From NCBI GenBank assembly GCA_964503465.1, contig CAZCYZ010000001.1, positions 405,898 to 469,897 on the forward strand: 64,000 nucleotides of DNA, read 5' to 3'. Below are positions 8,627-34,886 of this stretch, in pieces; position 1 is the stretch's first letter; each line of letters begins with the position of its first letter. Source of the stretch: an uncultured Gammaproteobacteria bacterium. Lineage in GTDB: Bacteria > Patescibacteriota > Microgenomatia > UBA12405. Under the pieces are notes generated by a model. The model was given only the letters and a program-made list of their open reading frames with translations, searched no databases and had not been told where the DNA came from. The position numbers and the translations under genes are program-made.

Positions 8627-8656
8627 CTCTTTCCAACTTATTATAAACTTTATACT

Positions 8657-13048: not shown

Positions 13049-13909
13049 ATGACTTATCACCAACCGGTTCTCTTAAGCGAAGCTGTCAGGCTTCTTGACC
13101 CTTCTCCCAATAAAACCTTTCTTGACGCTACTCTCGGCAACGGTGGCCACTCATATCAATTACTCAAAAAAGGAGCTACTGTGTTTGGTCTAGATGCCGA
13201 TCAAGCCAACCTAAAACTCGCCTCGTCCAGATTGTCTCAGTTCAAACACTTTTACCCAATCCATGATAACTTTGTCAATCTAAAATCAATTCACCAACAC
13301 CACATCAAGCGCCCCTTAGACGGTATCATTTTTGATCTTGGTCTTAGCAATAACCAAATCACTGCCCAGAATCGTGGCTTCTCATTTAACGACAACCTAT
13401 CACTTGACATGCGACTTAACCCAACCCACACCCACCTTACAGCCCAAGCTATCATCAACACTTATGATCTTAACCAATTATCAGAAATTTTTTCAAAATA
13501 CGGTCAAGAGATACTTGCCAAACCAATCTCCGCCTCAATAATCAACCATCGTCAGCACTCACCCATAACTACCGCCTCAAGACTGGCAAAAATAATTACC
13601 GACTGTTATTCCCAGCATCACCGCAGACCCACTCATCATCCTGCAACCAAAGTCTTCCTCGCTCTAAAAACTGTCGTCAATAACGAATACAACAACCTGA
13701 AAGACACCCTTCCTCAAACCATTAACCTACTTAAACCAAACGGAGTTACTATTATTATTACATTTCACTCTGGAGAGGATAGGTTGGTAAAACTTTTTAT
13801 AAAGTCACATCACTTTTTTCAGTCTGGAACAATTTATCCATCATCTAAAGAAATCGATCACAATCCCTTATCCAGAAGCGCTATTCTTAGATGGTATAAA
13901 ATCTGTTAA
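13049..13909 (+). CDS. rsmH: 16S rRNA (cytosine1402-N4)-methyltransferase RsmH (MraW)
   Basis: YHQPVLLSEAV...FLDATLGNGGHS N-terminal signature. Confidence 0.85.
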   Translation: MTYHQPVLLSEAVRLLDPSPNKTFLDATLGNGGHSYQLLKKGATVFGLDADQANLKLASSRLSQFKHFYPIHDNFVNLKSIHQHHIKRPLDGIIFDLGLSNNQITAQNRGFSFNDNLSLDMRLNPTHTHLTAQAIINTYDLNQLSEIFSKYGQEILAKPISASIINHRQHSPITTASRLAKIITDCYSQHHRRPTHHPATKVFLALKTVVNNEYNNLKDTLPQTINLLKPNGVTIIITFHSGEDRLVKLFIKSHHFFQSGTIYPSSKEIDHNPLSRSAILRWYKIC

Positions 13910-14148
13910 TGCCTTTTTTTCTTATTTCCCTAATCGTTCAGCTCCTCTCTTCGTTTTACTACAGTAACCAAATTGTCAAACTTAACGACCAGTCCCAGCA
14001 ACAACTACTAACCATTAGCGCGCTAAGCTACCAACACCAAAACCTCGAAACCGAATGGGCCATTCTTAACCGTCTAGAAAACATCGCTACCCAAGCCGCC
14101 CAACTCAACCTTAAACCTATTAAACAATCACTTGATTTTACTCGATGA
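13909..14148 (+). CDS. FtsL-like small membrane cell-division protein
   Basis: 79 aa, single TM helix plus a short coiled coil. Position between rsmH and ftsI. Confidence 0.4.
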   Translation: MPFFLISLIVQLLSSFYYSNQIVKLNDQSQQQLLTISALSYQHQNLETEWAILNRLENIATQAAQLNLKPIKQSLDFTR

Positions 14149-15764
14149 CATCCGCCAGAACAAAAATCCTGCTTAGCACTATTATCATTATTTTTAGCAT
14201 TAATCTTAGCCGCTTTTTTTATTGGCAAGTAATCCGCAGGAATGACCTCAAAAAACAACAACTTTCTCAAAACTACAAAATCACCAAAATCGAACCGATT
14301 CGAGGTAAAATTTTGTCCCAAGACCAATACCCACTAGTCCTCAATCAAGACAAATACCAACTCTCAATCTACAAACCTGACCTAAAGTCACCAATATCCA
14401 CTATTATTAAAACTCTAGGTCAACTAAAACCAGACTTAGCTATCAAATACTTCTCCCAACTATCTAATTTTGACAATAATTCCGAACAAAAGTGGATCAC
14501 ACTGTCGGAAGACTTTGGTTCTGAAGATATCTCAAAACTTGATATTCCAGGAATCGTCCTCCAAAAAGTTAACCGACGTTTTTATCCACAAGGAAAACTA
14601 CTCCGTCAAACTTTGGGGAATATCAGCTTAAGTGGATTAGAAAGTTATTACAATCAACAGTTGATTGGCCGAACCGGCTTCCTCTGGACACCCAAGGATG
14701 CTATTGGTAACCCGATTCTTACCCAAAAATCTTGGCAAATCGATTCAATTGACGGTCGCAGCCTTCATCTTAATATCAACCGTTCAGTCCAATTTTTGAT
14801 TGAAACTAAATTAGCCGAAGGAATCAACAAATTCCAAGCTGACTGGGGTTCGGTTATTGTCCTTGATAGTCCCACTGGAAAAATACTCGGTATTAGCAGT
14901 CAAGAAGCCACATCTTCAAATCAAATAGCACCACGCAATATTGCTATTTCTGATCTTTTTGAACCAGGATCAATTTTTAAACCACTCGTTGTTGCCATGG
15001 CTCTGGACTCAAATGTTATTGACCAAGACTACACCTGCCAATCATGTGACCAACCAAAAGTTATTGGCGATAATACCATCAATAACTGGGATTTTAATCT
15101 CCACCCCAACTCCACCCTTAAAGACATTATCAAAAACTCAGACAATATTGGCATGGCTAGCATTATCGAAATTTTGGGGTTAGAAAAATTTACCAATTAC
15201 TTTCACCGACTTGGATTAGATCAAAAAACCAACATTGATCTCCCCGGAGAAGCTAGGCCAATCTCAAAAAACTACTGGAGTCCAATTGACCTTGCCACCG
15301 CCTCGTTTGGCCAAGGCTTTGCCATCAGCCAAATACAAATGGTTACCGCCTTTAACTCTCTCGCCAACGACGGCGTTCTTGTCTTACCAAAGGTTGTTGA
15401 CTATCTTAGCCAATCAGATCAAGTTATCTACCCCAAAATGACTCTTTCCAAAAAAATCTTTGATCAGAAAACCACTAGTTTAATCAAGTCTATTTTAAAA
15501 TATTCAGTTGACAACGGAGCTATTGCCAAATTAAAACCTGACAATCTCGACGTCTGTGCCAAAAGTGGCACCGCTCAAGTTGCCATAAAGGGAGGGTATC
15601 TTGATACTACCACCAATGCCTCATATGTCGGCTTTTCTCCTTGTGATCACCCCAAAATCACCATGATTGTCACTCTTCACAATCCCAAAGCATCGTCCTG
15701 GGGATCTTCTACCGCCGCCCCAATTTGGTTTGAAATTACCGACTCTATCATTAAGTTGTTATAA
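14145..15764 (+). CDS. ftsI: Penicillin-binding protein, peptidoglycan D,D-transpeptidase (FtsI/PBP2-like)
   Basis: SxxK (GSIFKP), SDN (KNSDNIG) and KSGT (AKSGTAQ) motifs. N-terminal TM anchor. Confidence 0.8.
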   Translation: MTSARTKILLSTIIIIFSINLSRFFYWQVIRRNDLKKQQLSQNYKITKIEPIRGKILSQDQYPLVLNQDKYQLSIYKPDLKSPISTIIKTLGQLKPDLAIKYFSQLSNFDNNSEQKWITLSEDFGSEDISKLDIPGIVLQKVNRRFYPQGKLLRQTLGNISLSGLESYYNQQLIGRTGFLWTPKDAIGNPILTQKSWQIDSIDGRSLHLNINRSVQFLIETKLAEGINKFQADWGSVIVLDSPTGKILGISSQEATSSNQIAPRNIAISDLFEPGSIFKPLVVAMALDSNVIDQDYTCQSCDQPKVIGDNTINNWDFNLHPNSTLKDIIKNSDNIGMASIIEILGLEKFTNYFHRLGLDQKTNIDLPGEARPISKNYWSPIDLATASFGQGFAISQIQMVTAFNSLANDGVLVLPKVVDYLSQSDQVIYPKMTLSKKIFDQKTTSLIKSILKYSVDNGAIAKLKPDNLDVCAKSGTAQVAIKGGYLDTTTNASYVGFSPCDHPKITMIVTLHNPKASSWGSSTAAPIWFEITDSIIKLL

Positions 15765-15776
15765 TCTACCTACTCA

Positions 15777-17009
15777 ATGTTCCTTCGCCAGTCAAAGTAT
15801 TACCTCCAAAAGCTGAAAAACTATCTTTGGCATCTTCCAAAAGCTATATTTGCCAACATTTATTACCGCTTTCCGTCAAACCAACTCACCTTGATCGGGA
15901 TCACTGGAACCGACGGCAAGACCACCACCACCCACCTCATTCACCACTTCTTGGTCCAGTCAGGCCTACGTACTGAAGTTATATCTACCATCAACAGCCC
16001 CGGACTCCATACCACTTCCCCCGACTCAATCATAGTCCAAAAACTCTTTCGTGATTTTGTCAATCGCGGCATTACCCATGTCGTCGTCGAAGTTACCGCT
16101 CATGCCATCGATCAATTTCGATATTGGGGATGCCATTTTCAGATCGGCGTTCTTACCAACATCTCCCACGAACACCTCGATGATTTCATTTCCATGGACA
16201 ATTATGTTCTTACCAAAGCCAAGTTCTTTCGCCACCTCGACACAGCTATTCTTAATCAGGATGACCCATCATTTCCTATAATTTCTCAGGCTAAAGTTAA
16301 AAATATTATCACATATGGCATTAAAGATACTTCAAACTTCCAGGCAAAAAATATTAAACTTACTCCTACAAAACTTTCCTTTAGAGTTAACGACACCCAT
16401 GTTGTCACTAATACACCCTATAGATACCAAGTCTTCAATATTCTGGCCGCCATCGCCGTCGCCAACCATATTGGGCTCGACCTGCAAAAACTTGCAAAAT
16501 ATTTAAAAAATTTTCCTGATATCAAAGGTCGACGTCAAGAAATCAAAAACTCGCTGAGTATCAGGGCAATTGTCGATTTCGCTCACACCCCAGCTGCCCT
16601 AAAACAAACACTCTCATCACTTAAGTCAACTACCTCTGGCAAGCTAATAGTTATTTTTGGAGCCACTGGTGGACGAGACTCAAGCAAACGACCTTTAATG
16701 GGTCAAGTAGTATCAAAAATTGCCGATATCGCCGTAATTACCGCCGATGATACTCGACATGAAAACATAAATCTTATTAACCAGCAAATTATTGCCGGGA
16801 TTAATCATCATCACCCCGAATTCAAGTTCTATAATATCCCTGACAGACAAGAGGCATTTAATCTCGCCATTAAACTAACCAAGCCGGGAGACACAGTTGT
16901 CGCTTGCGGTAAAGGTCACGAAACTACTATTCTTCATGGATCAACCGAGTATCCTTGGTCAGAAGCCGACGCTTTTAGAACAGCCTTCCGCCAAAAACAT
17001 AATGTTTAA
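15777..17009 (+). CDS. murE: Mur ligase, probably UDP-MurNAc-tripeptide synthetase MurE (short form lacking N-terminal domain)
   Basis: GITGTDGKTTTTHL P-loop, HEHLD motif, C-terminal ADDTRHEN resembling the MurE DNPR motif. Confidence 0.65.
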   Translation: MFLRQSKYYLQKLKNYLWHLPKAIFANIYYRFPSNQLTLIGITGTDGKTTTTHLIHHFLVQSGLRTEVISTINSPGLHTTSPDSIIVQKLFRDFVNRGITHVVVEVTAHAIDQFRYWGCHFQIGVLTNISHEHLDDFISMDNYVLTKAKFFRHLDTAILNQDDPSFPIISQAKVKNIITYGIKDTSNFQAKNIKLTPTKLSFRVNDTHVVTNTPYRYQVFNILAAIAVANHIGLDLQKLAKYLKNFPDIKGRRQEIKNSLSIRAIVDFAHTPAALKQTLSSLKSTTSGKLIVIFGATGGRDSSKRPLMGQVVSKIADIAVITADDTRHENINLINQQIIAGINHHHPEFKFYNIPDRQEAFNLAIKLTKPGDTVVACGKGHETTILHGSTEYPWSEADAFRTAFRQKHNV

Positions 17010-17574
17010 CATTCAAAACAGCAATAAACCAGAAGACAACTATTCTTCCGGTTTACTGCCACAACGAAACCGTAAAAACTTCTGGTATTTTGACAGTAGT
17101 TGTCGCTCTAACCTGTCACAGTTTCAACTTTCTTCCGAAAATCGTCGTATTCTCAAAAAAACCACAAATTTTTCCTACACTGTCACTCCGCTTCCTCAAA
17201 AACCAGATAAAGCAATTTTTAGCTGGACCAAAGAACTAGGTTGGGATTTCCCCAACAACTCTATCAAAACCATTTTTCAAAGTCACCTTTTTAATACTCT
17301 TTATATCTGGCAACACAACTCTCAAAAAATTGCCTACTCTGTGTGTTATTTTGACAACACCATCTCCCATTGCGCCTATGTTTTTTATCATCCAAAATAC
17401 TATCACTTAGACCTTCCCATTCGCTTAGTCCTGCAGGCCATCATCGACAGCCAGCAACAAGGATTAAAATTTTGCTACCTTGGCCGCGATCACACTCATC
17501 CAGGTAATTTCTATAAACGCAACATGCCAGGATACGAATACATTAAAGACAAAAACTGGCTAAAATATAGATAA
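17002..17574 (+). CDS. Hypothetical protein, possible Ate/Bpt-like (ATE_C) aminoacyl-tRNA-dependent transferase
   Basis: ATG at 17002 overlaps the murE stop (ATGTTTAA). The residue pattern W..H..YSVCYFD...HCAYVFYHPKYY...CYLGRDHTHPGNFYKRNMPGYEY is reminiscent of the arginyl/leucyl-tRNA protein transferase C-domain. The assignment is tentative. Confidence 0.3.
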   Translation: MFNIQNSNKPEDNYSSGLLPQRNRKNFWYFDSSCRSNLSQFQLSSENRRILKKTTNFSYTVTPLPQKPDKAIFSWTKELGWDFPNNSIKTIFQSHLFNTLYIWQHNSQKIAYSVCYFDNTISHCAYVFYHPKYYHLDLPIRLVLQAIIDSQQQGLKFCYLGRDHTHPGNFYKRNMPGYEYIKDKNWLKYR

Positions 17575-17579
17575 AAACT

Positions 17580-18875
17580 ATGCGCATCCACATCATCGGC
17601 ATTGCTGGACAAGGAATGACTACCCCCCTAGCGCTTGAACTTCAACGTCTGGGCCACTTTGTCACTGGTTCCGACCAAGACAAAATTTATCCTCCTGCTA
17701 GTCTTTTGCTAAGGAAATCTCATATTCCCATCAACGTTGATCCATCTCGTACCGATTTGGTTATTGTTGGCTCCAGTTTTCGTAATTTACCAAAACTTTC
17801 TCAAGAGTTTACACAAATCAAACAGCTTGGTATCCCCTATATCTCCGCCACCAAATACATTGCCCAAAATATCGTCAAAAGCAATTCTATCCTAGTCGCA
17901 GGCACATTTGGGAAAACCACCATTACTGCTCTTATATCCTGGATACTGACCAAAGCCAAATTTAACCCCTCATTCATGATTGGTGGTCAACCAATCAACA
18001 AAATACCCCCTCTTGCGATTACCTCTTCCGACTGGTCCGTTGTCGAAGCCGATGAGTCCATTAACGGTCTTGACACCAAAGCAAAGTTTTTATATTACCC
18101 GTGCAAATATGTTCTTCTCACCAGCGCCGATTGGGAACACCAAGATTCCTACCCAACTAACCAGGAAAACCTTAATGCTTTCAAAAAACTCCTCCAAAAC
18201 ATACCTCAAGACGGCTTTCTCGTCTACAACCCCAATAGTCCAAGTATTTCTCAAATACTTCCATTTTGTCCCGGTAAAACTATTCCTTACAACTTTAATC
18301 TAACTTTCAACACTAATCTAATCGGCCAACACAACCAAGAAAATATTTTCGCTGCCTACACACTTTGTCACCACCTGGGAATCCCTGATTCCACTATCCG
18401 ATCGGCCATCAAGTCGTTTAAAGGGGTAGTTCGCCGCCTACAACTAGTCAAAGACACTCACAATATTCTTTTTATCGATGATTTTGCCCAATCCACCATT
18501 AGAATCGAATCAACCATCAAGGCAATCACCCTGCACTATCCAGGCAGACCAATCAAGGTTTATTTTGAACCACATGCCTCATTTCTTCAATATCGCTCGA
18601 GTATCCCCGGTTTCAAACAAGCTTTTAAGTCAACCCAGGAGGTTGTACTCGGAAAGATAAAATTTAACCCCAACTTAAGCCCACACCAGCGAGTTACCGC
18701 CAACACCTTTGCATCTGAGGTGGGCAATAAGTTAAAATATATACCACTGTCCAACCAAGTAGTTTCTCACTATCAACAAGTCCTAACGTCTGGTGACATT
18801 CTCCTTCATCTTAGTTCTGGTGGACTTGAAGGACAAAAAATCTTTCATCATCTCATCAGATATTTTAGTAATTAA
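17580..18875 (+). CDS. murC: UDP-N-acetylmuramate--L-alanine ligase
   Basis: MRIHIIGIAGQGMT...GHFVTGSDQ MurC-type N-terminus. Mur ligase central and C domains. Confidence 0.7.
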   Translation: MRIHIIGIAGQGMTTPLALELQRLGHFVTGSDQDKIYPPASLLLRKSHIPINVDPSRTDLVIVGSSFRNLPKLSQEFTQIKQLGIPYISATKYIAQNIVKSNSILVAGTFGKTTITALISWILTKAKFNPSFMIGGQPINKIPPLAITSSDWSVVEADESINGLDTKAKFLYYPCKYVLLTSADWEHQDSYPTNQENLNAFKKLLQNIPQDGFLVYNPNSPSISQILPFCPGKTIPYNFNLTFNTNLIGQHNQENIFAAYTLCHHLGIPDSTIRSAIKSFKGVVRRLQLVKDTHNILFIDDFAQSTIRIESTIKAITLHYPGRPIKVYFEPHASFLQYRSSIPGFKQAFKSTQEVVLGKIKFNPNLSPHQRVTANTFASEVGNKLKYIPLSNQVVSHYQQVLTSGDILLHLSSGGLEGQKIFHHLIRYFSN

Positions 18876-18887
18876 CCACTTAATACC

Positions 18888-20216
18888 ATGTCACGATACA
18901 TAGTTAATGGCGGAAAACCACTTCATGGCGAAGTTTCTATTCGAGGTGCCAAAAACGCTAGTTTCAAACAAATCATTGCCTCAATGCTAAGTGATAAACC
19001 CACCCACCTCACTAATATCCCCAACATTTCCGACGTCCGCATCACCAAAAGTATCGCCAAAAGTCTTGGAGCTAAAATTCTCACCACAGGTGAACACAGT
19101 ATTGAAATCCAAACCAAAAAACTCACCAGCTCGACCGTTCCCCACGGTACCGGAGACAAATCCCGTACCTCATTTATTTTTTCTGCCCCATTGTTGGCCC
19201 GTACCGGAAATGCCACCATTCCACTTCCCGGAGGCGACAAACTCGGCGCTAGGCCACTAGACCGCCTTTTTGATTGTTTTACTCAAATGGGAATTACCAC
19301 TGAGTTCCAAAATGATCTTATGGTTTTTCACACCGACTGCATCAAACCAACCCACTACACTTTTCCAAAACCGTCACACACAGTCACTGAAGTTGTCATT
19401 ATGACCGCCACTCTTGCCAATGGAGAAACAGTCCTCGACAATGCAGCCCAAGAGCCAGAAATCGATGATTTAATCACCATGTTAAACAGTATGGGGGCTG
19501 TTATCTCTCGAAACCCCAAAAATCCAGGTAGAATCATCATTCAAGGAGTCCCTTGGCTTAATGGAACCAACCATCAAGTCATTCCCGACAGAAATGAAAC
19601 CATCACCTTTGCTTGTGCTGCTCTCTCCACCAAAGGGTCCATTAACATTTTAAGAACCAATCCTAATATCATTAAATGTTTTCTTGAGACAATAGAACGA
19701 ATGGGGGCCAAGGTCTTTGCTGGAGACGATGAGGTTTCCATTAGTTGGACCAAACCACTTCATTCTGTTGATGTCGAGACCGGACCAGAGCCAGGCTTTA
19801 TGACTGATTGGCAACCATTATTTACCGTTGTACTAACTCAAGCTATTGGCTGTAGCAATCTAATCGAAAGAATATTCCCATTTCGCTTTCAACATATTGA
19901 CACTCTAACCAAAATGGGTGGTAAGTTCAAGTTTTTTAACCCCACCGTCAGCCACCCGGAACAATATTATCATTTCAATCCAGAAAGCGACAAACCAGAA
20001 TATCATCACGGTGTCAAGATATTCGGACCAGCCCAACTCCAGCCATTAGAAATCGATATTAACGATCTTCGAGCCGGTGCCTGTGCCACCCTAGCAGCCC
20101 TTACCGCTCAGGGACAATCCGTTATTAATGGTGTTGAATTTATTGAAAGAGGTTACGAAAAACTAGCCGACCGGCTCAAATCTCTTAACGCCTCGATCGA
20201 ATATATAAAAACTTAA
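18888..20216 (+). CDS. murA: UDP-N-acetylglucosamine 1-carboxyvinyltransferase
   Basis: YIVNGGKPLHGEVSIRGAKNA N-terminus and EPT-fold length. Confidence 0.85.
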   Translation: MSRYIVNGGKPLHGEVSIRGAKNASFKQIIASMLSDKPTHLTNIPNISDVRITKSIAKSLGAKILTTGEHSIEIQTKKLTSSTVPHGTGDKSRTSFIFSAPLLARTGNATIPLPGGDKLGARPLDRLFDCFTQMGITTEFQNDLMVFHTDCIKPTHYTFPKPSHTVTEVVIMTATLANGETVLDNAAQEPEIDDLITMLNSMGAVISRNPKNPGRIIIQGVPWLNGTNHQVIPDRNETITFACAALSTKGSINILRTNPNIIKCFLETIERMGAKVFAGDDEVSISWTKPLHSVDVETGPEPGFMTDWQPLFTVVLTQAIGCSNLIERIFPFRFQHIDTLTKMGGKFKFFNPTVSHPEQYYHFNPESDKPEYHHGVKIFGPAQLQPLEIDINDLRAGACATLAALTAQGQSVINGVEFIERGYEKLADRLKSLNASIEYIKT

Positions 20217-20221: not shown

Positions 20222-21256
20222 ATGATACATTTGTTTCTGGGATTACTCCTTTTTTCATTTTTGATCACCAGTATATTAGTCATACCCTTTATCAATATCC
20301 TCTACAAACTTAAGTTTCAACGCCAAAAACAAAAAACCCTTGACTTCCTCAACCACAGAACACCTATCTTTGATAAATTCCATTCCCAAAAGTTTGGAAC
20401 GCCTGTCGGCGGAGGAGTACTAATCATCTGCAGTGTAGTCCTTCTCTACCTCTTCCTCTTCCCGATACTTCAACTTCTCCAAATTCACATCTCCGCCAAC
20501 TATCCAATTCAAAGAGAGCTAGAAATAATCTTTTTTACGTTTATCAGTTTTGGAGTACTCGGTCTGTACGATGATGCTAAAAAAACCTTTGGTCTCGATA
20601 AAAGTCAGTTTTTCGGACTGCGAATAATCCACAAACTCACCCTTCAACTAATACTAGCCACCATTATTTCCCTTCTCATCTACTTTCGCCTCAAAGTCAA
20701 TTTTATTTACCTACCGTTTATTGGCCCACTAACCGTTGGTCCATTTCTAATTCCAATCTATATCGTTTTCATTGTCTCATTTGCCAATTTCTTTAATATC
20801 ACTGATGGTCTCGATGGCCTGGCATCGGGATTACTGATGATATCTTTATTTGCCTTCTGGGTACTTTCGGCCAACTCGCTTGACACCCCAATTGCTCTGT
20901 TTCTGGCGCTTTGGCTTGGTAGTTTAATCGCCTTCCTATATTTCAATATTTTCCCTGCCAGAGTTTGGCTTGGAGACGTTGGGGCCTTATCGTTCGGTGC
21001 CACCTTTGCCGTTATCGCCCTTATTTTAGGTAAAATAATACCACTTATCATTGTTGGTGCTCCTTTTATTATCGAAGGGGGGAGCAGTGCCATTCAAATG
21101 TTTTCCAAAAGATTTTTGGGTAGTAAAATTTTTCCTGCTGCCCCACTTCACTTGTCGCTTCAACATGCTGGCTGGGAAGAGCCAAAAATTGTTTTCCGCG
21201 CCTGGCTAGCTGGAATTATTCTTGCTGTCTTTGGACTATGGTTAGGACTCAATTAA
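20222..21256 (+). CDS. mraY: Phospho-N-acetylmuramoyl-pentapeptide transferase
   Basis: NITDGLDGLASG and PARVWLGDVGALSFG motifs. Polytopic. Confidence 0.85.
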   Translation: MIHLFLGLLLFSFLITSILVIPFINILYKLKFQRQKQKTLDFLNHRTPIFDKFHSQKFGTPVGGGVLIICSVVLLYLFLFPILQLLQIHISANYPIQRELEIIFFTFISFGVLGLYDDAKKTFGLDKSQFFGLRIIHKLTLQLILATIISLLIYFRLKVNFIYLPFIGPLTVGPFLIPIYIVFIVSFANFFNITDGLDGLASGLLMISLFAFWVLSANSLDTPIALFLALWLGSLIAFLYFNIFPARVWLGDVGALSFGATFAVIALILGKIIPLIIVGAPFIIEGGSSAIQMFSKRFLGSKIFPAAPLHLSLQHAGWEEPKIVFRAWLAGIILAVFGLWLGLN

Positions 21257-21954
21257 TCCAAGAACTTAAGAAGGAAATTTCTCACTATCTTGGTATTCCA
21301 TACTGGTGCAATGTTTGGAATAATTTAATCCTACAAAAAGAAGGGCCATACGGAGGCAAGGGGACTTATCAAGAAATCGAACAAGCTACTAAAAACGCTG
21401 CTGAAAAAGAAGGAATCGCTAACTACTCGGATTTAACTAATTCTCAGATATACAATCTACGCAAGCGCAACCATATTGGCATCGATTGCTCCGGCCTCTG
21501 TTACCACTTACTAAACAAACTCGACTGTCTAACTGGCGGCACTGGTATTCTCTATAAAGTTACCGGAGTAGATAAACCTTTTGGTGTTCTCGGGGTGAGA
21601 ACTGTTTCTGCTAATGAACTGACTCATCCTCAAAATGCCACCAAACTGACTAACTATCAAGGTATCAAACCAGGGGATCTAATCCGTCTCGATAATGGAA
21701 AACACGTCATTTTTATCATTGAAAAAATCAGAGGCACTATAAACTATGTCCACAGCAGTGACAGAACCAAAAGTAGGGGAGTACACCTCGGTACTATTTC
21801 CATAATTAATCCCAAAATGACTCTCGACCATCAAAAATGGTCAGACACTACCATCAACGGGCAACCCTATACCACCCTATTCAAACCTACCCAAGGAGAT
21901 GGTATCTTTCGTCCCAAATTTCTTACTTCTCTTCAATCAGTTCCTCATACTTGA
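21238..21954 (+). CDS. Cytoplasmic NlpC/P60-like papain-fold hydrolase (putative)
   Basis: IGIDCSGLCYHLL Cys motif, downstream GDLIRLDNGKHVIFII His and INYVHSS. No signal peptide. Overlaps mraY by 19 nt. Confidence 0.4.
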   Translation: MVRTQLIQELKKEISHYLGIPYWCNVWNNLILQKEGPYGGKGTYQEIEQATKNAAEKEGIANYSDLTNSQIYNLRKRNHIGIDCSGLCYHLLNKLDCLTGGTGILYKVTGVDKPFGVLGVRTVSANELTHPQNATKLTNYQGIKPGDLIRLDNGKHVIFIIEKIRGTINYVHSSDRTKSRGVHLGTISIINPKMTLDHQKWSDTTINGQPYTTLFKPTQGDGIFRPKFLTSLQSVPHT

Positions 21955-22108
21955 GTGGCACTAAGGATAGTATTTCTATCTCTGTCCCACACTCGCCGCA
22001 CTCCAAAATATCACCCACTGTCATTTTCAGAGTCCTCTTAATTTCAGTTTGACAGTCTGGACAAATTATCTTTTGATTATCAATCATTCTGGAATAAAAT
22101 ATAACCTA

Positions 22109-22891
22109 ATGACGCCTCTTGTCAAGATCGATAATTTTTATCTGAAACGCGAAGACCTCAACACAACCGGCTCTGTTAAAGACAGAGCTATTCAATCTCA
22201 GGTTCAAAACCTTACAAAACTTAAATACCACTCGGCCGTTATTTCTTCAACCGGCAACGCTGCCATTTCGGCTCAACACTTTTGCCAAATACACCATATC
22301 CCATTAGTGATTTTCGTTTCCCCCCATACTCATCCAAACAAACTTAAGTTACTATCAAATTTTCACATCTCCGACAAACCCATTAGTGATGCCATAAAAT
22401 ACGCCAAACTTTACCACGCTTATTTACTTCGACAGTCAACCGATCAAGTCGCCATCGACAGTTATGGCCAAATCGCCAATGAAATCATCGACCAACTGCC
22501 ATCAATTACCAGTATTTACTTCCCAGTTGGGAGTGGAGCTACCCTGGTTGGTGTCGGTCAAAAACTTTCCTCACACGTAAAAATTATAGCCACTCAATCT
22601 GCCTTTAATCCAACCATTACTAAAACTTACTGCCCAAGTATTCCATCAGAAAAAATCAATCTCACTGACGCTCTCACTGTTAGATATCTTCCTCTAAAAT
22701 CACGACTGACCAAACTCATTGCCCACGGTCTAACTGTTCCTAACTCTCAAATTACCACTACCCAAAAAAAATTAAACTCTCAGGGAGTTCACACTTCCAA
22801 TGAAGGTGCCATGGCTCTGGCCGCTTTCCTTCAGGACCCCAAACTCGGTGGAAAATATCCAGTTATTTTGTTCACAGGTACCAATCGATGA
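22109..22891 (+). CDS. PLP-dependent beta-family enzyme (fold type II, CysK/CysM-like)
   Basis: NTTGSVKDR Schiff-base lysine motif, STGNAAIS, GSGATLVG glycine loop. Start is ambiguous (ATG 22049 or 22109). Confidence 0.6.
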   Translation: MTPLVKIDNFYLKREDLNTTGSVKDRAIQSQVQNLTKLKYHSAVISSTGNAAISAQHFCQIHHIPLVIFVSPHTHPNKLKLLSNFHISDKPISDAIKYAKLYHAYLLRQSTDQVAIDSYGQIANEIIDQLPSITSIYFPVGSGATLVGVGQKLSSHVKIIATQSAFNPTITKTYCPSIPSEKINLTDALTVRYLPLKSRLTKLIAHGLTVPNSQITTTQKKLNSQGVHTSNEGAMALAAFLQDPKLGGKYPVILFTGTNR

Positions 22892-23916
22892 ATATAGCTC
22901 AAATACTCAATGATTCACCCTACCAATTCTATTTTTTGGTTATCGACAAATTTCTTGACATTCAACCTCCAGATCTAACCCGATTCCAAACAATTACCTC
23001 ACCAAAATACAAAAACTCTGGTCAGTTACTATCGTCACCGGCCACAATTAACCTAATCAATCAACAATCAGCAAACTACCAAACCGCTGTTATCCCATTC
23101 AAACCATCTGCTAAAACCAATTTAGTCTGCCAGAAACATCACTGGGTCTACGTTGGTAATTCCACTGCTATTAGTCGAATCCTCGAAGACAAAATTAAGT
23201 TTTATCAGCTATGTCAAACCAATCATCTCCCACTAGTCCCTTCAAACATCACTACTCTAACTCCAAAAACTTTTAAACCAAATTATATAATTCAAACTCG
23301 CTTTGGCTGGGCTGGTAAATGTACCTTCAGTTTTTCAAATTACCAAGAAGCTATCCGTAAAATTCCCACCAACACTCCGATTAAAATTAGCCCATTTATT
23401 GATGGATATACCCTCACCAACAACAGTTGCTTAACTCGCTTTGGTTTAATCCAAAGCCCCCCCGCTTTGCAATACACCGGCCTAAAGCCCTATACCACTA
23501 ATCCATTTGCCACCGTTGGCCGCCAATGGCCATGCCTCTCACCCCCAAATATCCAAGAACAGATCAAAAACATTACCCAAAAATTTTCAGACGGAGTCCT
23601 CAAACCACTTAAGTACCGCGGGTTTTTTGGGCTTGATTTTCTAGTTAACCACAACAATGTTTACCTTCTTGAGTGTAATCCTCGACTAACCGCCTCTTTT
23701 GCCTTTTACACCAAACTAGAAATCACTGCTGGATTAAATCCACTCTTTTATCTCCATCTAGCCGAATTCACCAACTTAGACTACCATCTTGACATTAACC
23801 AAGAACAACATCGTTTCTACTTGCCCATCACCGGCTCAGAACTTACTCCCAAAGACCCCAATGGCCGAATCACTGACCAAATTCACTACTCTTATCCCCT
23901 CGTAAAATCACCATGA
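22888..23916 (+). CDS. ATP-grasp ligase, carbamoyl-phosphate-synthetase-like subfamily
   Basis: GFFGLDFLVNHNNVYLLECNPRLTASFAF matches the CarB-type E-x-N-P-R-x-S/T Mg site. Upstream KxxGxxGK-like and ISPFIDGY segments. Confidence 0.6.
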   Translation: MNIAQILNDSPYQFYFLVIDKFLDIQPPDLTRFQTITSPKYKNSGQLLSSPATINLINQQSANYQTAVIPFKPSAKTNLVCQKHHWVYVGNSTAISRILEDKIKFYQLCQTNHLPLVPSNITTLTPKTFKPNYIIQTRFGWAGKCTFSFSNYQEAIRKIPTNTPIKISPFIDGYTLTNNSCLTRFGLIQSPPALQYTGLKPYTTNPFATVGRQWPCLSPPNIQEQIKNITQKFSDGVLKPLKYRGFFGLDFLVNHNNVYLLECNPRLTASFAFYTKLEITAGLNPLFYLHLAEFTNLDYHLDINQEQHRFYLPITGSELTPKDPNGRITDQIHYSYPLVKSP

Positions 23917-24986
23917 AAAAACACCTTACTACCATTATCACTTTTACTTTGATTTCTATAGGCTTAATATTCATTACCATTTCTTCTCAGTCCGAAGCTA
24001 GCAATCTTTTTAATGACCAACTTCATTTTATAAAACGACAAATATTCTGGGTAGTCATTGGCACCCTTTTATATATCTTTTTTTCAAACCTCCACATCAA
24101 ACGATACCAGAAATACATCCCTAGCTTGTACCTTCTTTCCGTTGGCGCTCTTATTTTGGTTCTACTTCCACCTTTAAGTCAAAAAATTTTAGGGGCTCGC
24201 CGTTGGCTCGAGATCGGTGACGTCACTATTCAACCATCTGAAATCTTCAAGCTCAGTTCGATTCTTTTTTTCTCCCAACTATTTTCTCAAAGTCAATATC
24301 GTAATCTAAAAACGTTTCTCATCTATCTCGTTCCGCCACTACTGCTTATTATTCTTCAGCCCAACCTTAGTACTGCCATTATTACTGTCCTTATCATTAC
24401 ATCACTTTATTACCTTTCTGGCGCTGAAATAGTTCCACTATTTCTTCTTAGTTTTCTCATTACCACTGTCAGTTTTATCCTTATTATTACTTCGGGCTAC
24501 CGGTTAACTCGTCTTCAAGCTCTACTTAATCAAACCCCCATTACTTCGTACCACTCCAACCAAATCACTCTTGCCATCTCTTCTGGTGGCATTTTTGGTA
24601 AAGGTTTAGCCAACTCTGAACAAAAATATCGCTATCTACCAAAAATTCCCACTGATTCGATACTTGCCATTATCGGCGAAGAAACCGGCTTCCTCGGAAT
24701 CACTGTTATTATTTGCCTTTATCTTTACCTTATTATTCACATCTTTACTTTCACCTACCGGCTTACCAATCAATTTGACATACTTCTAGCAACCGGCGTC
24801 GGTTGTTGGTTAGCCTATCAAAGCCTAGTTAACATCTCTAGTCTGGCAACTCTTATTCCCTTAACCGGAATCCCCTTACCGCTCATATCCTACGGCGGTT
24901 CCTCGGTTACTTCTATTTTGGCAGCATTAGGTATTTTTCACAACCTTGAACAACACCAATCATCAAAATATGAACAAACAAAATAA
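23913..24986 (+). CDS. ftsW: SEDS family peptidoglycan polymerase FtsW
   Basis: Polytopic membrane protein with C-terminal GIPLPLISYGGSS motif. dcw position. Confidence 0.8.
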   Translation: MKKHLTTIITFTLISIGLIFITISSQSEASNLFNDQLHFIKRQIFWVVIGTLLYIFFSNLHIKRYQKYIPSLYLLSVGALILVLLPPLSQKILGARRWLEIGDVTIQPSEIFKLSSILFFSQLFSQSQYRNLKTFLIYLVPPLLLIILQPNLSTAIITVLIITSLYYLSGAEIVPLFLLSFLITTVSFILIITSGYRLTRLQALLNQTPITSYHSNQITLAISSGGIFGKGLANSEQKYRYLPKIPTDSILAIIGEETGFLGITVIICLYLYLIIHIFTFTYRLTNQFDILLATGVGCWLAYQSLVNISSLATLIPLTGIPLPLISYGGSSVTSILAALGIFHNLEQHQSSKYEQTK

Positions 24987-26022
24987 AACCATTATTATCA
25001 CTGGAACCCACCACACTCCAGCCCACGAACTCATTCACCAACTCCAGCACGATTCCAAAACAAACTGGCACATCTACTACATCAGCCACCAGTATCCTAC
25101 TGAAACCCACCTCGCCAATTCCATTATCCCCCAAATCGGGAAGGGGAACTTTTTCTCTATAGACTGTGGTAAATTCTATCGTCAATCCTATTTCAAAACC
25201 ATACTAGGCCTTCACCGAATTGTTCTTGCTTTTTTTAAATCAGTTTTATTAATACATCACATCAAACCAAATATTGTCGTTTCCTTCGGCGGTTATGTCT
25301 CTGTTCCAGTTGTTATGGCATCATATCTTCACCATATTCCTAGTATCACCCACGAACAGACAACCACCATGAGTTTATCAACTAAGATTAACTCCATCTT
25401 CTCAACCAGAGTCGCTCTGTCCTTTGATCCGCCTCATTTACACCGTAAACATATTCTTACTGGCAACCTACTTCGGTCGGCAATTTTCCAAACTAATAAC
25501 ACCAAATTCAACAAAACAATCATTCCGTTTATCTACGTTACTGGTGGCAATCAAGGATCACTTTTTATCAATCAAATAATCTATCAATTATTACCCAAAC
25601 TTTGCCAACGCTTTACTATTATCCACCAAACAGGCAACAAGCCAACAAAACAATTTTCTAGTCACAAATATATCCAACAAAACTATATCGACACCGACGA
25701 CATTGGATTCATTCTTCAACAAAGCCAACTTCTTATCAGCCGCAGCGGTGCCAACATCTGCCAAGAAATCGTTACTTTTAAGAAAAAATCGATTCTAATT
25801 CCCTTGCCACTATCTCAACAAAACGAACAACTTCTTAATGCTCAATGGGTCCAACGCCAGTTACCTCAACAAACCATTATCCTCGATCAATCAAAAACAA
25901 CCCCAAAAGACATTATTATTGCCATCAACAAGTTGTCCCAAATACCCACCAATCCTCAAACTAAACCAACAATTACTAATTTAAAATTACTAAATCTCAT
26001 ACATGAACTGGTTAAAACTTAG
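24946..26022 (+). CDS. murG: UDP-GlcNAc:undecaprenyl-PP-MurNAc-pentapeptide GlcNAc transferase
   Basis: GT28 family. IIITGTHHTPAHEL glycine-rich N-terminus and VTGGNQGS motif. Confidence 0.8.
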   Translation: MNNTNHQNMNKQNKTIIITGTHHTPAHELIHQLQHDSKTNWHIYYISHQYPTETHLANSIIPQIGKGNFFSIDCGKFYRQSYFKTILGLHRIVLAFFKSVLLIHHIKPNIVVSFGGYVSVPVVMASYLHHIPSITHEQTTTMSLSTKINSIFSTRVALSFDPPHLHRKHILTGNLLRSAIFQTNNTKFNKTIIPFIYVTGGNQGSLFINQIIYQLLPKLCQRFTIIHQTGNKPTKQFSSHKYIQQNYIDTDDIGFILQQSQLLISRSGANICQEIVTFKKKSILIPLPLSQQNEQLLNAQWVQRQLPQQTIILDQSKTTPKDIIIAINKLSQIPTNPQTKPTITNLKLLNLIHELVKT

Positions 26023-26332
26023 CCTACTTATCCCTTTCCTCAATCCACTCTCCCCTGAAAACCAATTTCAGACACGCCTTATTCATGCGCTATCACTCGC
26101 CAATATCAAATACAACCAGTTAAATTTTCGTGAATTCCAAAATGAAGTTGAGTTTCAGTTAGTCGAACCAGGCCAAACTCCAACCACAATTATCCTTTCC
26201 ACCCAAAAAAATCCATATTGGCAGATCAGTGCTTTACAACAAGTTCAAAAAACCAGTAGAATTAGACATAAGATTATTCGTCTTGTCAACCTTAGCTTAA
26301 ATCATCCCTATGCCACACTCGAAGATAATTAG
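26003..26332 (+). CDS. Small hypothetical protein in the ftsQ position
   Basis: 109 aa ORF bridging murG and ftsA with overlaps at both ends. No recognisable POTRA motif. Confidence 0.3.
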   Translation: MNWLKLSLLIPFLNPLSPENQFQTRLIHALSLANIKYNQLNFREFQNEVEFQLVEPGQTPTTIILSTQKNPYWQISALQQVQKTSRIRHKIIRLVNLSLNHPYATLEDN

Positions 26333-27560
26333 CGGTATCGATATTGGCACCTCCAAAATCACCACCATTATCGGACAACATCACCAGACTGAAGATCATC
26401 TAAATGTCATTGCCGTTTCTTCAACGCCAACAACAGGTTTCCGTAAAGGTCAAATTATTGACCTCGAAGAGGCCTCACATACCCTAACAGACAGTATTGA
26501 ATCAGCCGAAAGAATGGCTGGTTTTCAAATCAAAGAAGCCTCAATTACTATTACTGCCCCACACATCGAGTCAATTAACTCAAATGGCATTGTCGCCATT
26601 AGTAACCCCAATGGAGAAATATCACCCGACGACATCAATCGAGTCATTGAAGCTTCCAAGGCAGTTACCATGCCGGCAGATAAGGAAATTATTCACATCA
26701 TTCCACGTATTTATACGGTCGACGGCCAAGAAGGTATAATTGACCCTATCGGCATGAGCGGTGTTCGCCTAGAACTTCAATCCCACCTTGTCTTGGCCTC
26801 CACAGCCGCCCTAAAAAATCTCCGTAAATGTCTTGACGAAGTCGGTATAAATATCACCGAGCTAATTTATTCCGGTCTGGCCACTGCCGAAAGCACACTT
26901 ACTCCCACCGAAAAAGAGCTCGGTGTCGCCCTGGTTGACATTGGTGGTAATGCTACCAGCATTACTATTTATCTTGAAAACTCACCTGCTTTTTCTACTG
27001 TCATTCCTATTGGGGCCAATAATATCACCAACGACCTCGCTATCGGACTCAGACTACCTCTCGAAGATACAGAAAAAATAAAACTAAAACTTGGCAAAAT
27101 AGCCGAAAACAAGAAATTTGAAGATGAAATTGCCTTAACTGATCTAGGTTTAACCGACACCAGCAACAAAAAAATATCGTTCCAAACTGCGGTCAACGGT
27201 ATTCTCAAGCCACGCCTAGAAGAAATCTTTCAATTAATAAACCATCAAATTGTCCACAGTGGCTTCTCAAGCTCCATTCCTGCCGGAATTGTTCTCACTG
27301 GGGGTGGTTCACTCACCCTAACCGCCAAAGATATCTGTGCTCAGACAATTCCACTTCCACAACGAATTGCTTACCCTCCGAAAATCACCGGAGTCGTTGA
27401 TGACATTATTAACCCTGCCTACACCACCGCCATCGGCTTAATCCTCTATCAACTCAAACATGGCTCCCCCAATGATAGTTCTTCCAACAAAAAAAACAAA
27501 ATATCCGTTAATAGCTTATTTGGTAAGGTCAAGTCTTTACTCGAACCATTGCTCCCCTAA
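26310..27560 (+). CDS. ftsA: Cell division protein FtsA
   Basis: ISGIDIGTSKITTIIGQ actin-fold phosphate-1 motif. 416 aa. Confidence 0.85.
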   Translation: MPHSKIISGIDIGTSKITTIIGQHHQTEDHLNVIAVSSTPTTGFRKGQIIDLEEASHTLTDSIESAERMAGFQIKEASITITAPHIESINSNGIVAISNPNGEISPDDINRVIEASKAVTMPADKEIIHIIPRIYTVDGQEGIIDPIGMSGVRLELQSHLVLASTAALKNLRKCLDEVGINITELIYSGLATAESTLTPTEKELGVALVDIGGNATSITIYLENSPAFSTVIPIGANNITNDLAIGLRLPLEDTEKIKLKLGKIAENKKFEDEIALTDLGLTDTSNKKISFQTAVNGILKPRLEEIFQLINHQIVHSGFSSSIPAGIVLTGGGSLTLTAKDICAQTIPLPQRIAYPPKITGVVDDIINPAYTTAIGLILYQLKHGSPNDSSSNKKNKISVNSLFGKVKSLLEPLLP

Positions 27561-27563: not shown

Positions 27564-28688
27564 ATGGGACTAATCAAAACACTCAGCGGTCAGTTTGCCA
27601 AGATCAAAGTCATAGGAATCGGAGGTGGTGGCAACAACGCCATCAATTCAATGGTTCTAGATGATAACTTTCATGGAGTCGACTTCGTCGCCGTTAACAC
27701 CGATTCTCAAGCCCTTCTGAACTCGCAGGCTCCGATAAAAATTCAAATTGGTGAACAACTTACCAAAGGCCTTGGAGCTGGAGGTAATCCTCAAATTGGT
27801 GAAGACGCCGCCAATGAATCAAAAGACAAAATTAAAGAAATACTTGAAAATACCGACATGGTTTTTATCACTGGAGGTATGGGTGGTGGTACCTGCACCG
27901 GTGCCGCTCCTATTATTGCCAAAATCGCCAAAGAAGAATTGGGAATTTTAACGGTAGCAGTTGTCACAAAGCCATTCCTTTTCGAAGGCACTCGCCGAAT
28001 GAGTAATGCCATTGAAGGTATCAACCGACTCAAAAACAGTGTCGACACCCTGATCGTCATCCCCAACCAAAAAGTTATGGAGGTAATCAACAACCAGGCA
28101 ACCCTTAAGGAGGCCTTTAAGATTGCTGACTCTGTCCTTCAAAAGGGAACTCAAGCCATCGCCGACATTATCACTACTCCAGGACTAATTAATCTTGATT
28201 TTGCGGACATCAAATCCATCATGAGCAATGCTGGCACAGCCTTAATGGGAGTTGGCGAGGCCGAAGGTGATAATCGGGCTCAAAGTGCCATCGAAGCCGC
28301 TATTAATTCACCACTAGTAGAAGTCAATATCAACGGCGCCCGAGGTGTGCTCATTAATGTTACAGGTGGGCCCGACCTCACCATGTCCGAGGTCGAAGAG
28401 TCGGCCCAAATCATTACCAAACGAGTTGCCCCCGATGCCAACATTATCTTCGGTACTAACATTGACGATAACTATAAGAATAAGATAAAGATCACCATTA
28501 TTGCCACAGGGTTTGATAGTTTTACTCCAACGAGCACCACCAACACTCCAACCACCACTCCTCCATCATCTGAAAAAACCCTTACCCAAGACGAAGTTGA
28601 CAAGTACCTTAACGGCCAAACTATTCCCACCGGTATCAACATTGTTGACGAGTTCGACATTCCCGCCTTTCTTCGCAAAAATCAATAA
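27564..28688 (+). CDS. ftsZ: Cell division protein FtsZ
   Basis: IKVIGIGGGGNNAIN and GGMGGGTCTGAAPIIAKIAKE tubulin signature. T/P-rich C-terminal linker. Confidence 0.9.
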   Translation: MGLIKTLSGQFAKIKVIGIGGGGNNAINSMVLDDNFHGVDFVAVNTDSQALLNSQAPIKIQIGEQLTKGLGAGGNPQIGEDAANESKDKIKEILENTDMVFITGGMGGGTCTGAAPIIAKIAKEELGILTVAVVTKPFLFEGTRRMSNAIEGINRLKNSVDTLIVIPNQKVMEVINNQATLKEAFKIADSVLQKGTQAIADIITTPGLINLDFADIKSIMSNAGTALMGVGEAEGDNRAQSAIEAAINSPLVEVNINGARGVLINVTGGPDLTMSEVEESAQIITKRVAPDANIIFGTNIDDNYKNKIKITIIATGFDSFTPTSTTNTPTTTPPSSEKTLTQDEVDKYLNGQTIPTGINIVDEFDIPAFLRKNQ

Positions 28689-31704: not shown

Positions 31705-32682
31705 ATGTCAATTATCGTCCCACTTGTTGTTCTTGGATGTTTTAACCTCATCGTTGTATCATCTTTGAATCCCAATCTCCTTGGAAAACAAATCCTTCTT
31801 TGGATTCTGGGACTGATTTCATTTTGGTTTGGTCATCACCTCAACTCTAATATCCACTCCAAAACTCAGTGGCTATTGTTCTTCTTGTCATGTTTCGTAC
31901 TCATAATTCCTCTAGTTTTTAGCCCTATCACCCGTGGGTCTAAACGATGGCTCAATCTAGGAGTTACTCGAATCCAACCATCAGAAATAGTTAAACCAAC
32001 CTTAATGTTGTTCCTTGCTAATACCTCCCTACCATTACTGCACCTTCTCCCTATATTTTTAGTCGGTCTCCAACCAGATCTAGGCAGTGCCATCACTCTT
32101 CTCTCACTTCTCATCCCCGTTATTATCCTCAACACTAAACTGTTAAAAACCACTATTGTAGCCATTGCCGCCGCAGCTATCCTTTCACCTTTTATTTGGA
32201 AATACACCCTCCACGATTATCAAAGAAATCGATTAATTACTTTTGTTAATCCAGCCCAAGATCCACTAGGAAAAGGTTACCACACAATCCAGTCCAAAAT
32301 AGCCATTGGATCAGCTGGTTTTTTTGGTAAAGGTTACAAAAAAGGTAGCCAAGGCCAACTTCTTTTTCTCCCGGAAAAACATACTGATTTTATTTTCGCT
32401 GCCACCATTGAAGAACTGGGACTATTAAGTGGTATTATCATCATCCTCGCCTACTATACCCTTATCAAAGGCCTAATCCTCAAAGCTTCAACCTCGAACA
32501 GTCAACCTCAAGCCATTTTCACCCTAGGGATAGGCCTCCTCATCTGGACACAAGTTTTTGTTAATATAGGCATGAATATTGGTCTTCTCCCAATTACCGG
32601 TATACCGCTTCCGTTTCTTTCAGTGGGAGGATCTTCACTTGTCTCCCTAATGTTTTCTCTGGGAATAGTCTTTTCTTCATGA
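31705..32682 (+). CDS. SEDS family protein (RodA-like)
   Basis: Polytopic, with C-terminal GIPLPFLSVGGSSL. A second SEDS paralogue besides ftsW. Confidence 0.7.
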   Translation: MSIIVPLVVLGCFNLIVVSSLNPNLLGKQILLWILGLISFWFGHHLNSNIHSKTQWLLFFLSCFVLIIPLVFSPITRGSKRWLNLGVTRIQPSEIVKPTLMLFLANTSLPLLHLLPIFLVGLQPDLGSAITLLSLLIPVIILNTKLLKTTIVAIAAAAILSPFIWKYTLHDYQRNRLITFVNPAQDPLGKGYHTIQSKIAIGSAGFFGKGYKKGSQGQLLFLPEKHTDFIFAATIEELGLLSGIIIILAYYTLIKGLILKASTSNSQPQAIFTLGIGLLIWTQVFVNIGMNIGLLPITGIPLPFLSVGGSSLVSLMFSLGIVFSS

Positions 32683-34812: not shown

Positions 34813-34884
34813 GGTCGCTTGGCTCAGTGGTAGAGCGTTCCGTTCACATCGGAAAGGTCAGAGGTCCGATCCCTCTAGCGACCA
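34813..34884 (+). tRNA. tRNA-Val (anticodon CAC)
   Basis: Hand-folded cloverleaf. Acceptor GGTCGCT/AGCGACC, D-arm GCTC-AGTGGTA-GAGC, anticodon arm TTCCG-TTCACAT-CGGAA, T-arm AGAGG-TCCGATC-CCTCT, discriminator A. No encoded CCA. Confidence 0.7.
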
Positions 34885-34886
34885 CT

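Follow-up and report, generated by a model that had tools for sequence, protein, structure and literature searches.

The four genes between mraY and ftsW

The stretch of DNA analysed here, called the window throughout, is 64,000 nucleotides (nt) long and comes from contig CAZCYZ010000001.1 of a bacterium of the candidate phyla radiation (CPR), Microgenomates group. It carries a co-directional division and cell wall (dcw) cluster, in which an insertion of four genes (21238-23916) is flanked 5' by mraY (20222-21256, plus strand; Pfam Glycos_transf_4, 1.5e-27) and 3' by ftsW (23913-24986, plus strand; Pfam FTSW_RODA_SPOVE, 1.3e-85). An earlier interpretation made from the letters alone (the sequence-only reading) had described an insertion of three co-directional genes. 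These are all present with the motifs quoted for them, GIDCSGL in the first (ORF1), NTTGSVKDR in the second (PALP) and LLECNPRLTASFAF in the third (GRASP), as are the overlaps of 19 nt between mraY and ORF1 and of 4 nt at both the PALP/GRASP and the GRASP/ftsW junctions. However, a fourth gene, on the minus strand and encoding only 54 amino acids (aa), had been overlooked. The four genes form a conserved and uncharacterised module that probably makes or delivers a building block of the cell-wall peptide. A literature search of incomplete coverage found no description of it.

The overlooked gene (21923-22087, minus strand) occupies the apparent intergenic gap between ORF1 and PALP and overlaps the 3' end of ORF1 by 32 nt. 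Its product, ZnR (MIDNQKIICPDCQTEIKRTLKMTVGDILECGECGTEIEILSLVPLKYEELIEEK), is a LysW-like zinc-ribbon protein and the candidate carrier of the module. ZnR scores 32.9 bits on Pfam PF21344 (Zn_ribbon_LysW), over the cutoff of 27, but stays under the cutoffs of the LysW equivalog models (31.7 bits vs 53.2 on TIGR01206 and 23.6 vs 75 on NF041070). Among 77 orthologues, divergence at codon positions 1, 2 and 3 is 0.24, 0.10 and 0.57, respectively, and ZnR is therefore a real coding sequence under purifying selection. The protein aligns with Thermus LysW over the four cysteines and the ECxxCGxExE core. The tails differ: the EDWGE ending of LysW, with its terminal Glu as attachment site, is not present, and ZnR ends in Lys. 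In Shapirobacteria the tail reads ...EL[IV]EEK and elsewhere EEEK, TEK or EGK; overall the endings are EEK, EQK, ETK, TEK and EGK. About 90 sequences were compared and every one ends in Lys, the only invariant residue of the tail, the Glu positions being shifted from one sequence to another. ZnR is acidic (isoelectric point 4.4) and its partner proteins are basic; charge complementarity was dropped as an argument because most proteins of the cluster are basic.

ZnR is transcribed opposite to the whole dcw operon. A sigma-70-like promoter candidate, identified by consensus match only, lies upstream of it (22098-22125, minus strand; TTGACA, 16 nt, TATATT, 11 of 12 positions) and is the top-scoring site in 21000-24200. 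The match falls inside the 5' coding end of PALP, and its -10 element stops 11 nt before the ZnR ATG. Transcripts running on from mraY and ORF1 into PALP would be complementary to the ZnR mRNA, and antisense regulation is therefore possible. In some Shapirobacteria a 102-aa MazG-like gene, also on the minus strand, lies between ORF1 and ZnR (L001, 8697-9005, minus strand, and L002-L004), and ORF1 is 179 aa long there; the window lacks this insertion.

ORF1 (21238-21954, plus strand; 238 aa) had been read as an NlpC/P60-like protein without a signal peptide, and both the fold and the catalytic residues bear this out. An N-terminal hydrophobic segment is absent, and residues 1-75 form a family-specific helical extension with a conserved PY...N...GKG pattern. 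The catalytic residues are Cys84 (in GIDCSG), His156 and His172. Among 45 homologues the first two are invariant, and position 172 is His, rarely Asp or Gln. ORF1 scores 17.1 bits on Pfam PF00877, under the gathering cutoff of 23; a precomputed match to this family is present in a few orthologues. The papain-like fold matches those of the gamma-D-Glu-diamino-acid endopeptidases MepS, CwlO, LytE and YkfC-like proteins, and the amidase of glutathionylspermidine synthetase/amidase (Gsp) is also among the structural matches. From the conservation of Cys84, His156 and His/Asp172 it follows that ORF1 is a divergent NlpC/P60 (C40-like) cysteine amidase; LRAT, the other family considered, is ruled out by the fold, which is that of NlpC/P60 D,L-endopeptidases. 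Members of this fold family typically cleave gamma-D-glutamyl amide bonds. The ORF1 family may have further roles beyond the module: an Amesbacteria contig (L087, 7761-11487) carries two tandem ORF1-family paralogues without PALP or GRASP, next to asparagine-synthase-like and PqqD-like genes, a pairing typical of lasso-peptide clusters.

PALP (22109-22891, plus strand; 261 aa; Pfam PALP, 1.3e-35) is a short enzyme of fold type II that depends on pyridoxal 5'-phosphate (PLP). Its start is the ATG at 22109 and not the TTG at 22049, as the position of the ZnR gene implies and in agreement with orthologues of 260-273 aa and an independent Logan gene call. The Schiff-base Lys lies in TGSVKDR, the Asn-loop is SSTGNAA and the phosphate loop VGSGAT; K24, S47, G49, N50, S230 and E232 (an S-x-E motif) are invariant. 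The fold type and the Lys motif are as the sequence-only reading had them, but its CysK label was imprecise. The family profile finds, in the PDB, serine racemase (7e-22), TdcB (2.7e-21), threonine synthase (6.6e-18), aspartate racemase (3.9e-16) and also serine dehydratase, which by sequence places the family at roughly equal distance from serine racemase, the catabolic threonine/serine dehydratases, threonine synthase and aspartate racemase. A cysteine synthase (CysK/CysM) is rejected by low scores (26 bits vs 344 on TIGR01136) and because most cysteine synthases in the PDB align over their N-terminal half only. The residue aligned to the second base of serine racemase (Ser84) is Thr in Shapirobacteria and Ser in the other three architectures described below (types B to D), which allows an epimerase activity without proving one.

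These features bear on one further explanation, that PALP is a housekeeping threonine synthase or serine dehydratase which, together with a remnant LysW/LysX lysine or arginine pathway, has no link to the wall. Some public annotation pipelines do name the small protein LysW, the top NCBIfam matches of PALP are threonine synthases, and its STGN motif is threonine-synthase-like. Moreover, the less reduced PALP orthologues of type B lean to the archaeal-type threonine synthase (PRK06450). However, every equivalog score is far under its cutoff (64.7 bits vs 358 for threonine synthase in PALP itself, and 127.6 vs 301 for PRK06450 in type B). Neither LysX (RimK family) nor LysZ, LysY, LysJ or LysK is found within 10 kb of the module, the ZnR tail ends in Lys and not Glu, and GRASP is not of the RimK type. 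In every lineage, moreover, the genes are fixed either inside dcw or beside MurD-like and PAP2 genes. We regard the housekeeping explanation as highly improbable.

GRASP (22888-23916, plus strand; 342 aa; Pfam ATP-grasp_3, 7.3e-9) has the ATP-grasp fold and an E-x-N magnesium site within LLECNPRLTASFAF (E262-x-N264, followed by R266). Nearly all of its closest homologues, which are 49-66% identical to it, carry the label Candidatus Shapirobacteria. The structure is predicted with a mean confidence (pLDDT) of 94.3, and the chains nearest to the model are the gamma-glutamyl ligase BesA (23.0), PurD (22.4) and biotin carboxylases (20-22). Further chains are PurK (21.5), the L-amino-acid ligases (19-21) and PylC (20.3); Ddl (about 18) and LysX/ArgX (about 16) come lower, so that the structure comparison speaks against a LysX/RimK type. 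Sequence identity to BesA and PylC is 11-13%. Sequence and model together make GRASP a carboxylate-amine ligase; its family is uncharacterised and occurs mainly in CPR bacteria. The sequence-only reading, which had called it CarB-type and not Ddl-type, was right in the second point but not in the first: the carbamoyl-phosphate synthetase model gives 24 bits against a cutoff of 1027, and GRASP falls outside the carbamoyl-phosphate synthetase/biotin carboxylase family. Nor is it the PurK, PurT or CarB that would have made it a purine or pyrimidine enzyme.

The pairing of a racemase-like PLP enzyme with an ATP-grasp ligase mirrors that of Alr and Ddl, and neither ddl nor alr is present in the window. 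PALP could thus be a fold-type-II alanine/serine racemase and GRASP a ligase making D-Ala-D-X for a MurF encoded elsewhere, with the NlpC/P60 protein as a proofreading dipeptidase analogous to VanX. We consider this replacement of Alr and Ddl quite unlikely, since the Ddl models give GRASP only 15.8 bits against a cutoff of 310, Ddl structures are outranked by many other families, the genetic linkage is to MurD-like and not MurF-like ligases, and the carrier is left unexplained.

Conservation, alternative architectures and fusions

A scan of 185,579 species-representative genomes yielded 80 loci, nearly all of them from Shapirobacteria. In essentially all loci that cover the region, from about 80 species representatives of Shapirobacteria, the order is that of the window, namely MraY, ORF1, ZnR (minus strand), PALP, GRASP and FtsW (type A); the dcw setting proposed as a check on the first interpretation is therefore kept in essentially every relative examined. 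In 75 loci an oppositely oriented ZnR gene separates ORF1 from PALP, and ZnR is also found in three other architectures. Type B, from Gottesmanbacteria- and CPR3-like genomes, lies away from dcw and has the order PAP2, ORF1, MurD-like, ZnR (minus strand), PALP and GRASP; its MurD-like ligase scores 163 bits on TIGR01087, under the cutoff of 212. In type C (L006, L098/L099), MurF-like, DegT, FemAB and MurE genes are followed by MurC-like, ORF1, MraY, ZnR (minus strand), PALP, GRASP and FtsW. Type D, from a distant, AT-rich lineage (L101), has GRASP, ORF1, MraY and an ATE_C-like gene, then MurC-like, ZnR (minus strand) and PALP, then a convergent MurD-like gene. Catalytic residues are intact in all four proteins. 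Since the four genes recur in four arrangements, the module is a unit.

In all these arrangements the module accompanies cell-wall genes. A MurD-like ligase is beside it in two of the four architectures, and in the remaining two the module itself stands where murD canonically would. Of the suggestion that the insertion sits where murD or murF would be, the murD half is thus borne out, and the proposed link to the wall is strengthened by the MurD-like ligase and PAP2 phosphatase that adjoin the same genes in other lineages.

The position of the module also favors the scheme put forward in the first interpretation, in which PALP makes a free non-canonical or D-amino acid and GRASP ligates it directly onto the UDP-N-acetylmuramyl (UDP-MurNAc) peptide, either as a branch on residue 3, as Asl(fm) does, or to make up for the absence of the MurD or MurF step. 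ORF1 would then edit or trim stem peptides, and the zinc-ribbon protein would be an accessory or a regulator. Apart from the murD slot, and the finding that within 10 kb of 62 Shapirobacteria loci there are two Mur ligases only, one MurE-like and one MurC-like, the scheme is favored by the place of GRASP in a clade of carboxylate-amine ligases with amino-acid ligases and PylC, by the nearness of PALP to serine and aspartate racemases, and by a weak match of the type-D GRASP to the pseudomurein ATP-grasp model NF053643 (33 bits). However, types B and D have a MurD-like ligase in addition to GRASP, which hence is no simple replacement of MurD. A putative tRNA-dependent transferase of Bpt/Fem-like type is already present in the cluster and could do the branching. 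The fusions described next suggest that ligase and hydrolase act on the same bond. Finally, a ZnR with an invariant terminal Lys, kept beside PALP and GRASP in four architectures, is left unexplained. An attachment like that made by Asl(fm), directly to the UDP-MurNAc-peptide, could take place, but we find direct ligation an unlikely account of the module, if one to be taken seriously. The general idea behind it, a non-canonical amino-acid step in precursor synthesis, stands; the mechanism probably requires the carrier.

A search of 1.84 billion representatives with a GRASP-family profile gave 245 clusters at E<=1e-30, a family of some size. Four independent clusters (at 50% identity) combine GRASP, an SH3b-like region and a canonical NlpC/P60 domain in one protein. 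The fused NlpC/P60 domains score 62-70 bits on Pfam, they come closest in the PDB to MepS/Spr and to gamma-D-Glu-diamino-acid peptidases like DPP VI or YkfC, and they align with the ORF1 family at an hhalign probability of 85%. From these fusions, ligase and amidase very probably act on the same molecule, as they do in Gsp. In addition, one protein joins PALP to GRASP, and another (P0427, 622 aa), a further variant of the module, carries a GNAT acetyltransferase domain C-terminal to GRASP.

The pairing and fusion of a synthetase with an amidase, which recalls Gsp, could also mean reversible tagging, in which GRASP adds residues to the C-terminus of the zinc-ribbon protein, as RimK does to S6 and TTL to tubulin, and ORF1 removes them, the state of modification tuning cell-wall synthesis or division. 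The promoter-like site of ZnR, antisense to the operon, would suit such a regulator. Reversible tagging has no place for the PLP enzyme, which is invariably linked to the other genes and in one instance fused to GRASP, and we give it little credence.

A carrier-based reading of the module

The carrier-based scheme that we favor, because no other scheme employs all four conserved genes, is a route, conserved as a unit, in which a carrier protein serves to make or deliver one amino acid of the stem peptide, and which is tied to the MurD step, that is, to the second residue. We put its probability at roughly 0.35. That the locus is a carrier-linked cell-wall precursor module of some kind we consider somewhat better than an even bet. 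From the observed residues, folds and linkages we infer the substrates, the attachment site and the chemistry as follows. GRASP would take an acidic L-amino acid, L-Glu being the likeliest and L-Asp the alternative, activate its side-chain carboxylate (gamma or beta, respectively) and couple this to the epsilon-amine of the invariant Lys at the C-terminus of ZnR. PALP, which could bind the tethered residue because its alpha-amine and alpha-carboxylate stay free, would treat it like an amino acid with a long side chain and epimerise or otherwise modify its C-alpha. The ORF1 amidase would be selective for the product, which it would release, for instance as D-Glu for MurD, or pass on. Conversion of L to D would be made one-directional by the consumption of ATP in tethering and by the D-specificity of the amidase. 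As a net result, ATP would drive the supply of a D- or modified amino acid to lipid II synthesis in one direction.

Tethering to the Lys side chain is a tentative proposal, to which we would give less than even odds. It is favored because Lys is the sole invariant residue of a tail whose Glu positions shift, and because attachment through the side chain leaves free the alpha groups that a fold-type-II PLP enzyme needs. It is also favored because active sites of the threonine-synthase type accept a long gamma-substituent, because NlpC/P60 enzymes characteristically cut gamma-D-glutamyl amides, and because PylC and Asl(fm) are precedents for the acylation of a Lys epsilon-amine by ATP-grasp ligases. 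D-Glu is the leading candidate for the product on account of the murD slot and the association with MurD-like ligases; as a specific identification it is doubtful. Equally doubtful is the most specific form of the proposal, in which ZnR is a LysW of reversed polarity, its side-chain-tethered residue being epimerised by the PLP enzyme and the D-residue freed by a stereospecific NlpC/P60 amidase.

Several points weigh against the carrier route. In Shapirobacteria there is no MurD-like or MurF-like gene within 10 kb of the loci, and the connection with MurD therefore depends on types B and D and on where the genes lie. Among 150 GRASP-family representatives, none is fused to a carrier. Encoded on the opposite strand, ZnR might be not a carrier but a regulator or the target of a modification, and attachment might be through the alpha-carboxylate of the carrier or through a tail Glu. 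The Ser or Thr at the second-base position of PALP is also found in dehydratases and threonine synthases, and we know of no precedent for glutamate epimerisation by a fold-type-II PLP enzyme. Lastly, all the support for the carrier route comes from comparisons of sequence and structure.

Among the nearest known systems is the LysW/LysX pathway, in which an amino-group carrier serves lysine and arginine biosynthesis in Thermus, Sulfolobus and Thermococcus. Both have an acidic zinc-ribbon protein of about 54 aa with a CPxC...ECxxCG(T/A)E(L/V)E core, an ATP-grasp ligase as its partner, basic partner enzymes and a dedicated hydrolase that could free the product. The differences are that the tail is ...EEK here and EDWGE in LysW, that GRASP is not of the RimK/LysX type, that the module has no kinase, reductase or aminotransferase, and that it is set in a cell-wall cluster. 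The release enzyme is a Cys amidase here and an M20 metallopeptidase there, and the polarity of tethering is probably reversed, the carrier contributing the amine here and the carboxylate in LysW.

Other systems share parts of the module. The D-aspartate ligase Asl(fm) of Enterococcus faecium, reportedly described with its aspartate racemase by Bellais et al. in 2006, also combines an ATP-grasp ligase with a supplier of a D-amino acid for peptidoglycan precursors, and joins an acidic side-chain carboxyl to a Lys epsilon-amine. Unlike the module, its racemase is PLP-independent, and it has neither a carrier nor an NlpC/P60 partner. Gsp of Escherichia coli and trypanothione synthetase resemble the module in coupling a synthetase of ATP-grasp type to an amidase of the CHAP/NlpC/P60 superfamily that cleaves the same amide, and ligase and amidase are fused in some relatives; domain order, substrates and context differ, and Gsp has no PLP enzyme or carrier. 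PylC acylates the epsilon-amine of Lys. However, the partners of BesA, in a pathway to a terminal-alkyne amino acid, and of PylC, in that to pyrrolysine, are free amino acids, and these pathways belong to secondary metabolism and not to the cell wall. In Xanthomonas, MurD2/MurL is a non-canonical, ATP-consuming and one-directional route to D-Glu at position 2 of the stem peptide where the usual racemase is absent (PMC8788868). The module would likewise supply D-Glu in one direction and is likewise linked to a MurD-type ligase, but MurD2/MurL uses no carrier or amidase. In pseudomurein gene cluster A of methanogens, a 'CPS-like' ATP-grasp gene lies beside those for MraY-like and Mur-type ligases (PMC11915815). 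This cluster, too, embeds a non-Ddl ATP-grasp gene among MraY-like and Mur-ligase genes, but it has no LysW-like, PLP or NlpC/P60 partner, and the 33 bits of the type-D GRASP on the corresponding NCBIfam family are far under the cutoff of 500.

The surrounding cluster and the reach of the finding

Upstream of mraY, the dcw cluster comprises mraW (13049-13909), a small ORF assigned to the ftsL position by its place (13909-14148), a penicillin-binding protein (14145-15764), a MurE-type ligase (15777-17009, plus strand), an ATE_C/Bpt-like protein (17002-17574, plus strand), a MurC/Mpl-like ligase (17580-18875, plus strand) and MurA (18888-20216). Downstream of ftsW are MurG (24946-26022), a 109-aa ORF at the expected ftsQ position with no Pfam match (26003-26332), FtsA (26310-27560), FtsZ (27564-28688), isoleucyl-tRNA synthetase (28827-31703) and RodA (31705-32682). 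The 64-kb window has no further Mur ligase, no second ATP-grasp and no murI. The MurE-type ligase (410 aa; TIGR01085, 336 bits, over the cutoff of 257) matches its profile only from position 71-90 and thus lacks the N-terminal domain, which helps bind the UDP moiety; the type-C MurE (373 aa; L006, 4907-6028) likewise lacks it. The MurC/Mpl-like ligase is the sole Mur ligase of the cluster with a UDP-binding N-domain. It scores 212 bits on the murC model TIGR01082 (cutoff 335) and 150 on mpl (cutoff 389), and its substrate could be L-Ala or a preformed peptide. The ATE_C/Bpt-like protein (190 aa; Pfam ATE_C, 3.2e-4; NCBIfam arginyltransferase, 26 bits), whose gene follows MurE with an 8-nt overlap at the stop, precedes MurC and is kept in types A, C and D, is a putative aminoacyl-tRNA-dependent transferase with a fold like that of arginyl-/leucyl-tRNA-protein transferases. 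By analogy with FemX or MurM, it could be a tRNA-dependent enzyme of stem-peptide branching.

The double match of the MurC/Mpl-like ligase brings in the salvage of host muropeptides. CPR bacteria have little amino-acid biosynthesis, and ORF1 might act like YkfC or DPP VI in cleaving imported L-Ala-gamma-D-Glu-diamino-acid peptides, which GRASP would re-ligate and the MurC/Mpl-like ligase load onto UDP-MurNAc. The fused NlpC/P60 domains match DPP VI and YkfC-like enzymes, their SH3b-like region included; ORF1 itself, however, has no SH3b domain. Retention of a MurE-type ligase also argues against salvage, as does the lack of a role in it for the PLP enzyme or the carrier, and we judge it very unlikely.

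A YkuD-type L,D-transpeptidase gene lies just 3' of the dcw/rodA region (34827-35462), its true start being further downstream because the listed GTG start overlaps tRNA-Val (34813-34885). L,D-transpeptidation would lessen the requirement for a D-Ala-D-Ala terminus. Sets of glycan-assembly genes are found on both sides of the dcw region (347-10552 and 37856-40558), with Wzy-like and PMT-like proteins, several GT1, GT2 and GT4 glycosyltransferases, a sugar-1-phosphate nucleotidyltransferase, a Bac_transf initiating transferase and DUF4012. Over the entire window (1-64000), GC skew is strongly negative (-0.13 to -0.43 per 2 kb) and, most genes being on the plus strand, the coding strand is markedly C-rich.

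The cytoplasmic synthesis of peptidoglycan precursors is among the best-mapped bacterial pathways and a major antibiotic target. To our knowledge, very few alternative routes to the precursor exist, for example MurD2/MurL and MurT/GatD, and the cell walls of CPR bacteria have never been chemically analysed. As the four proteins are small and soluble, the scheme is directly testable in vitro. If true, CPR bacteria would have a new biochemical solution in a carrier-protein module, which takes the place of murD throughout a whole CPR class and is linked to MurD-like ligases elsewhere, and the LysW carrier principle would reach beyond lysine and arginine biosynthesis and secondary metabolism. It would amount to a hitherto unrecognised, ATP-driven and protein-templated route, shared by all of that class, to an essential building block of peptidoglycan, possibly replacing glutamate racemase.

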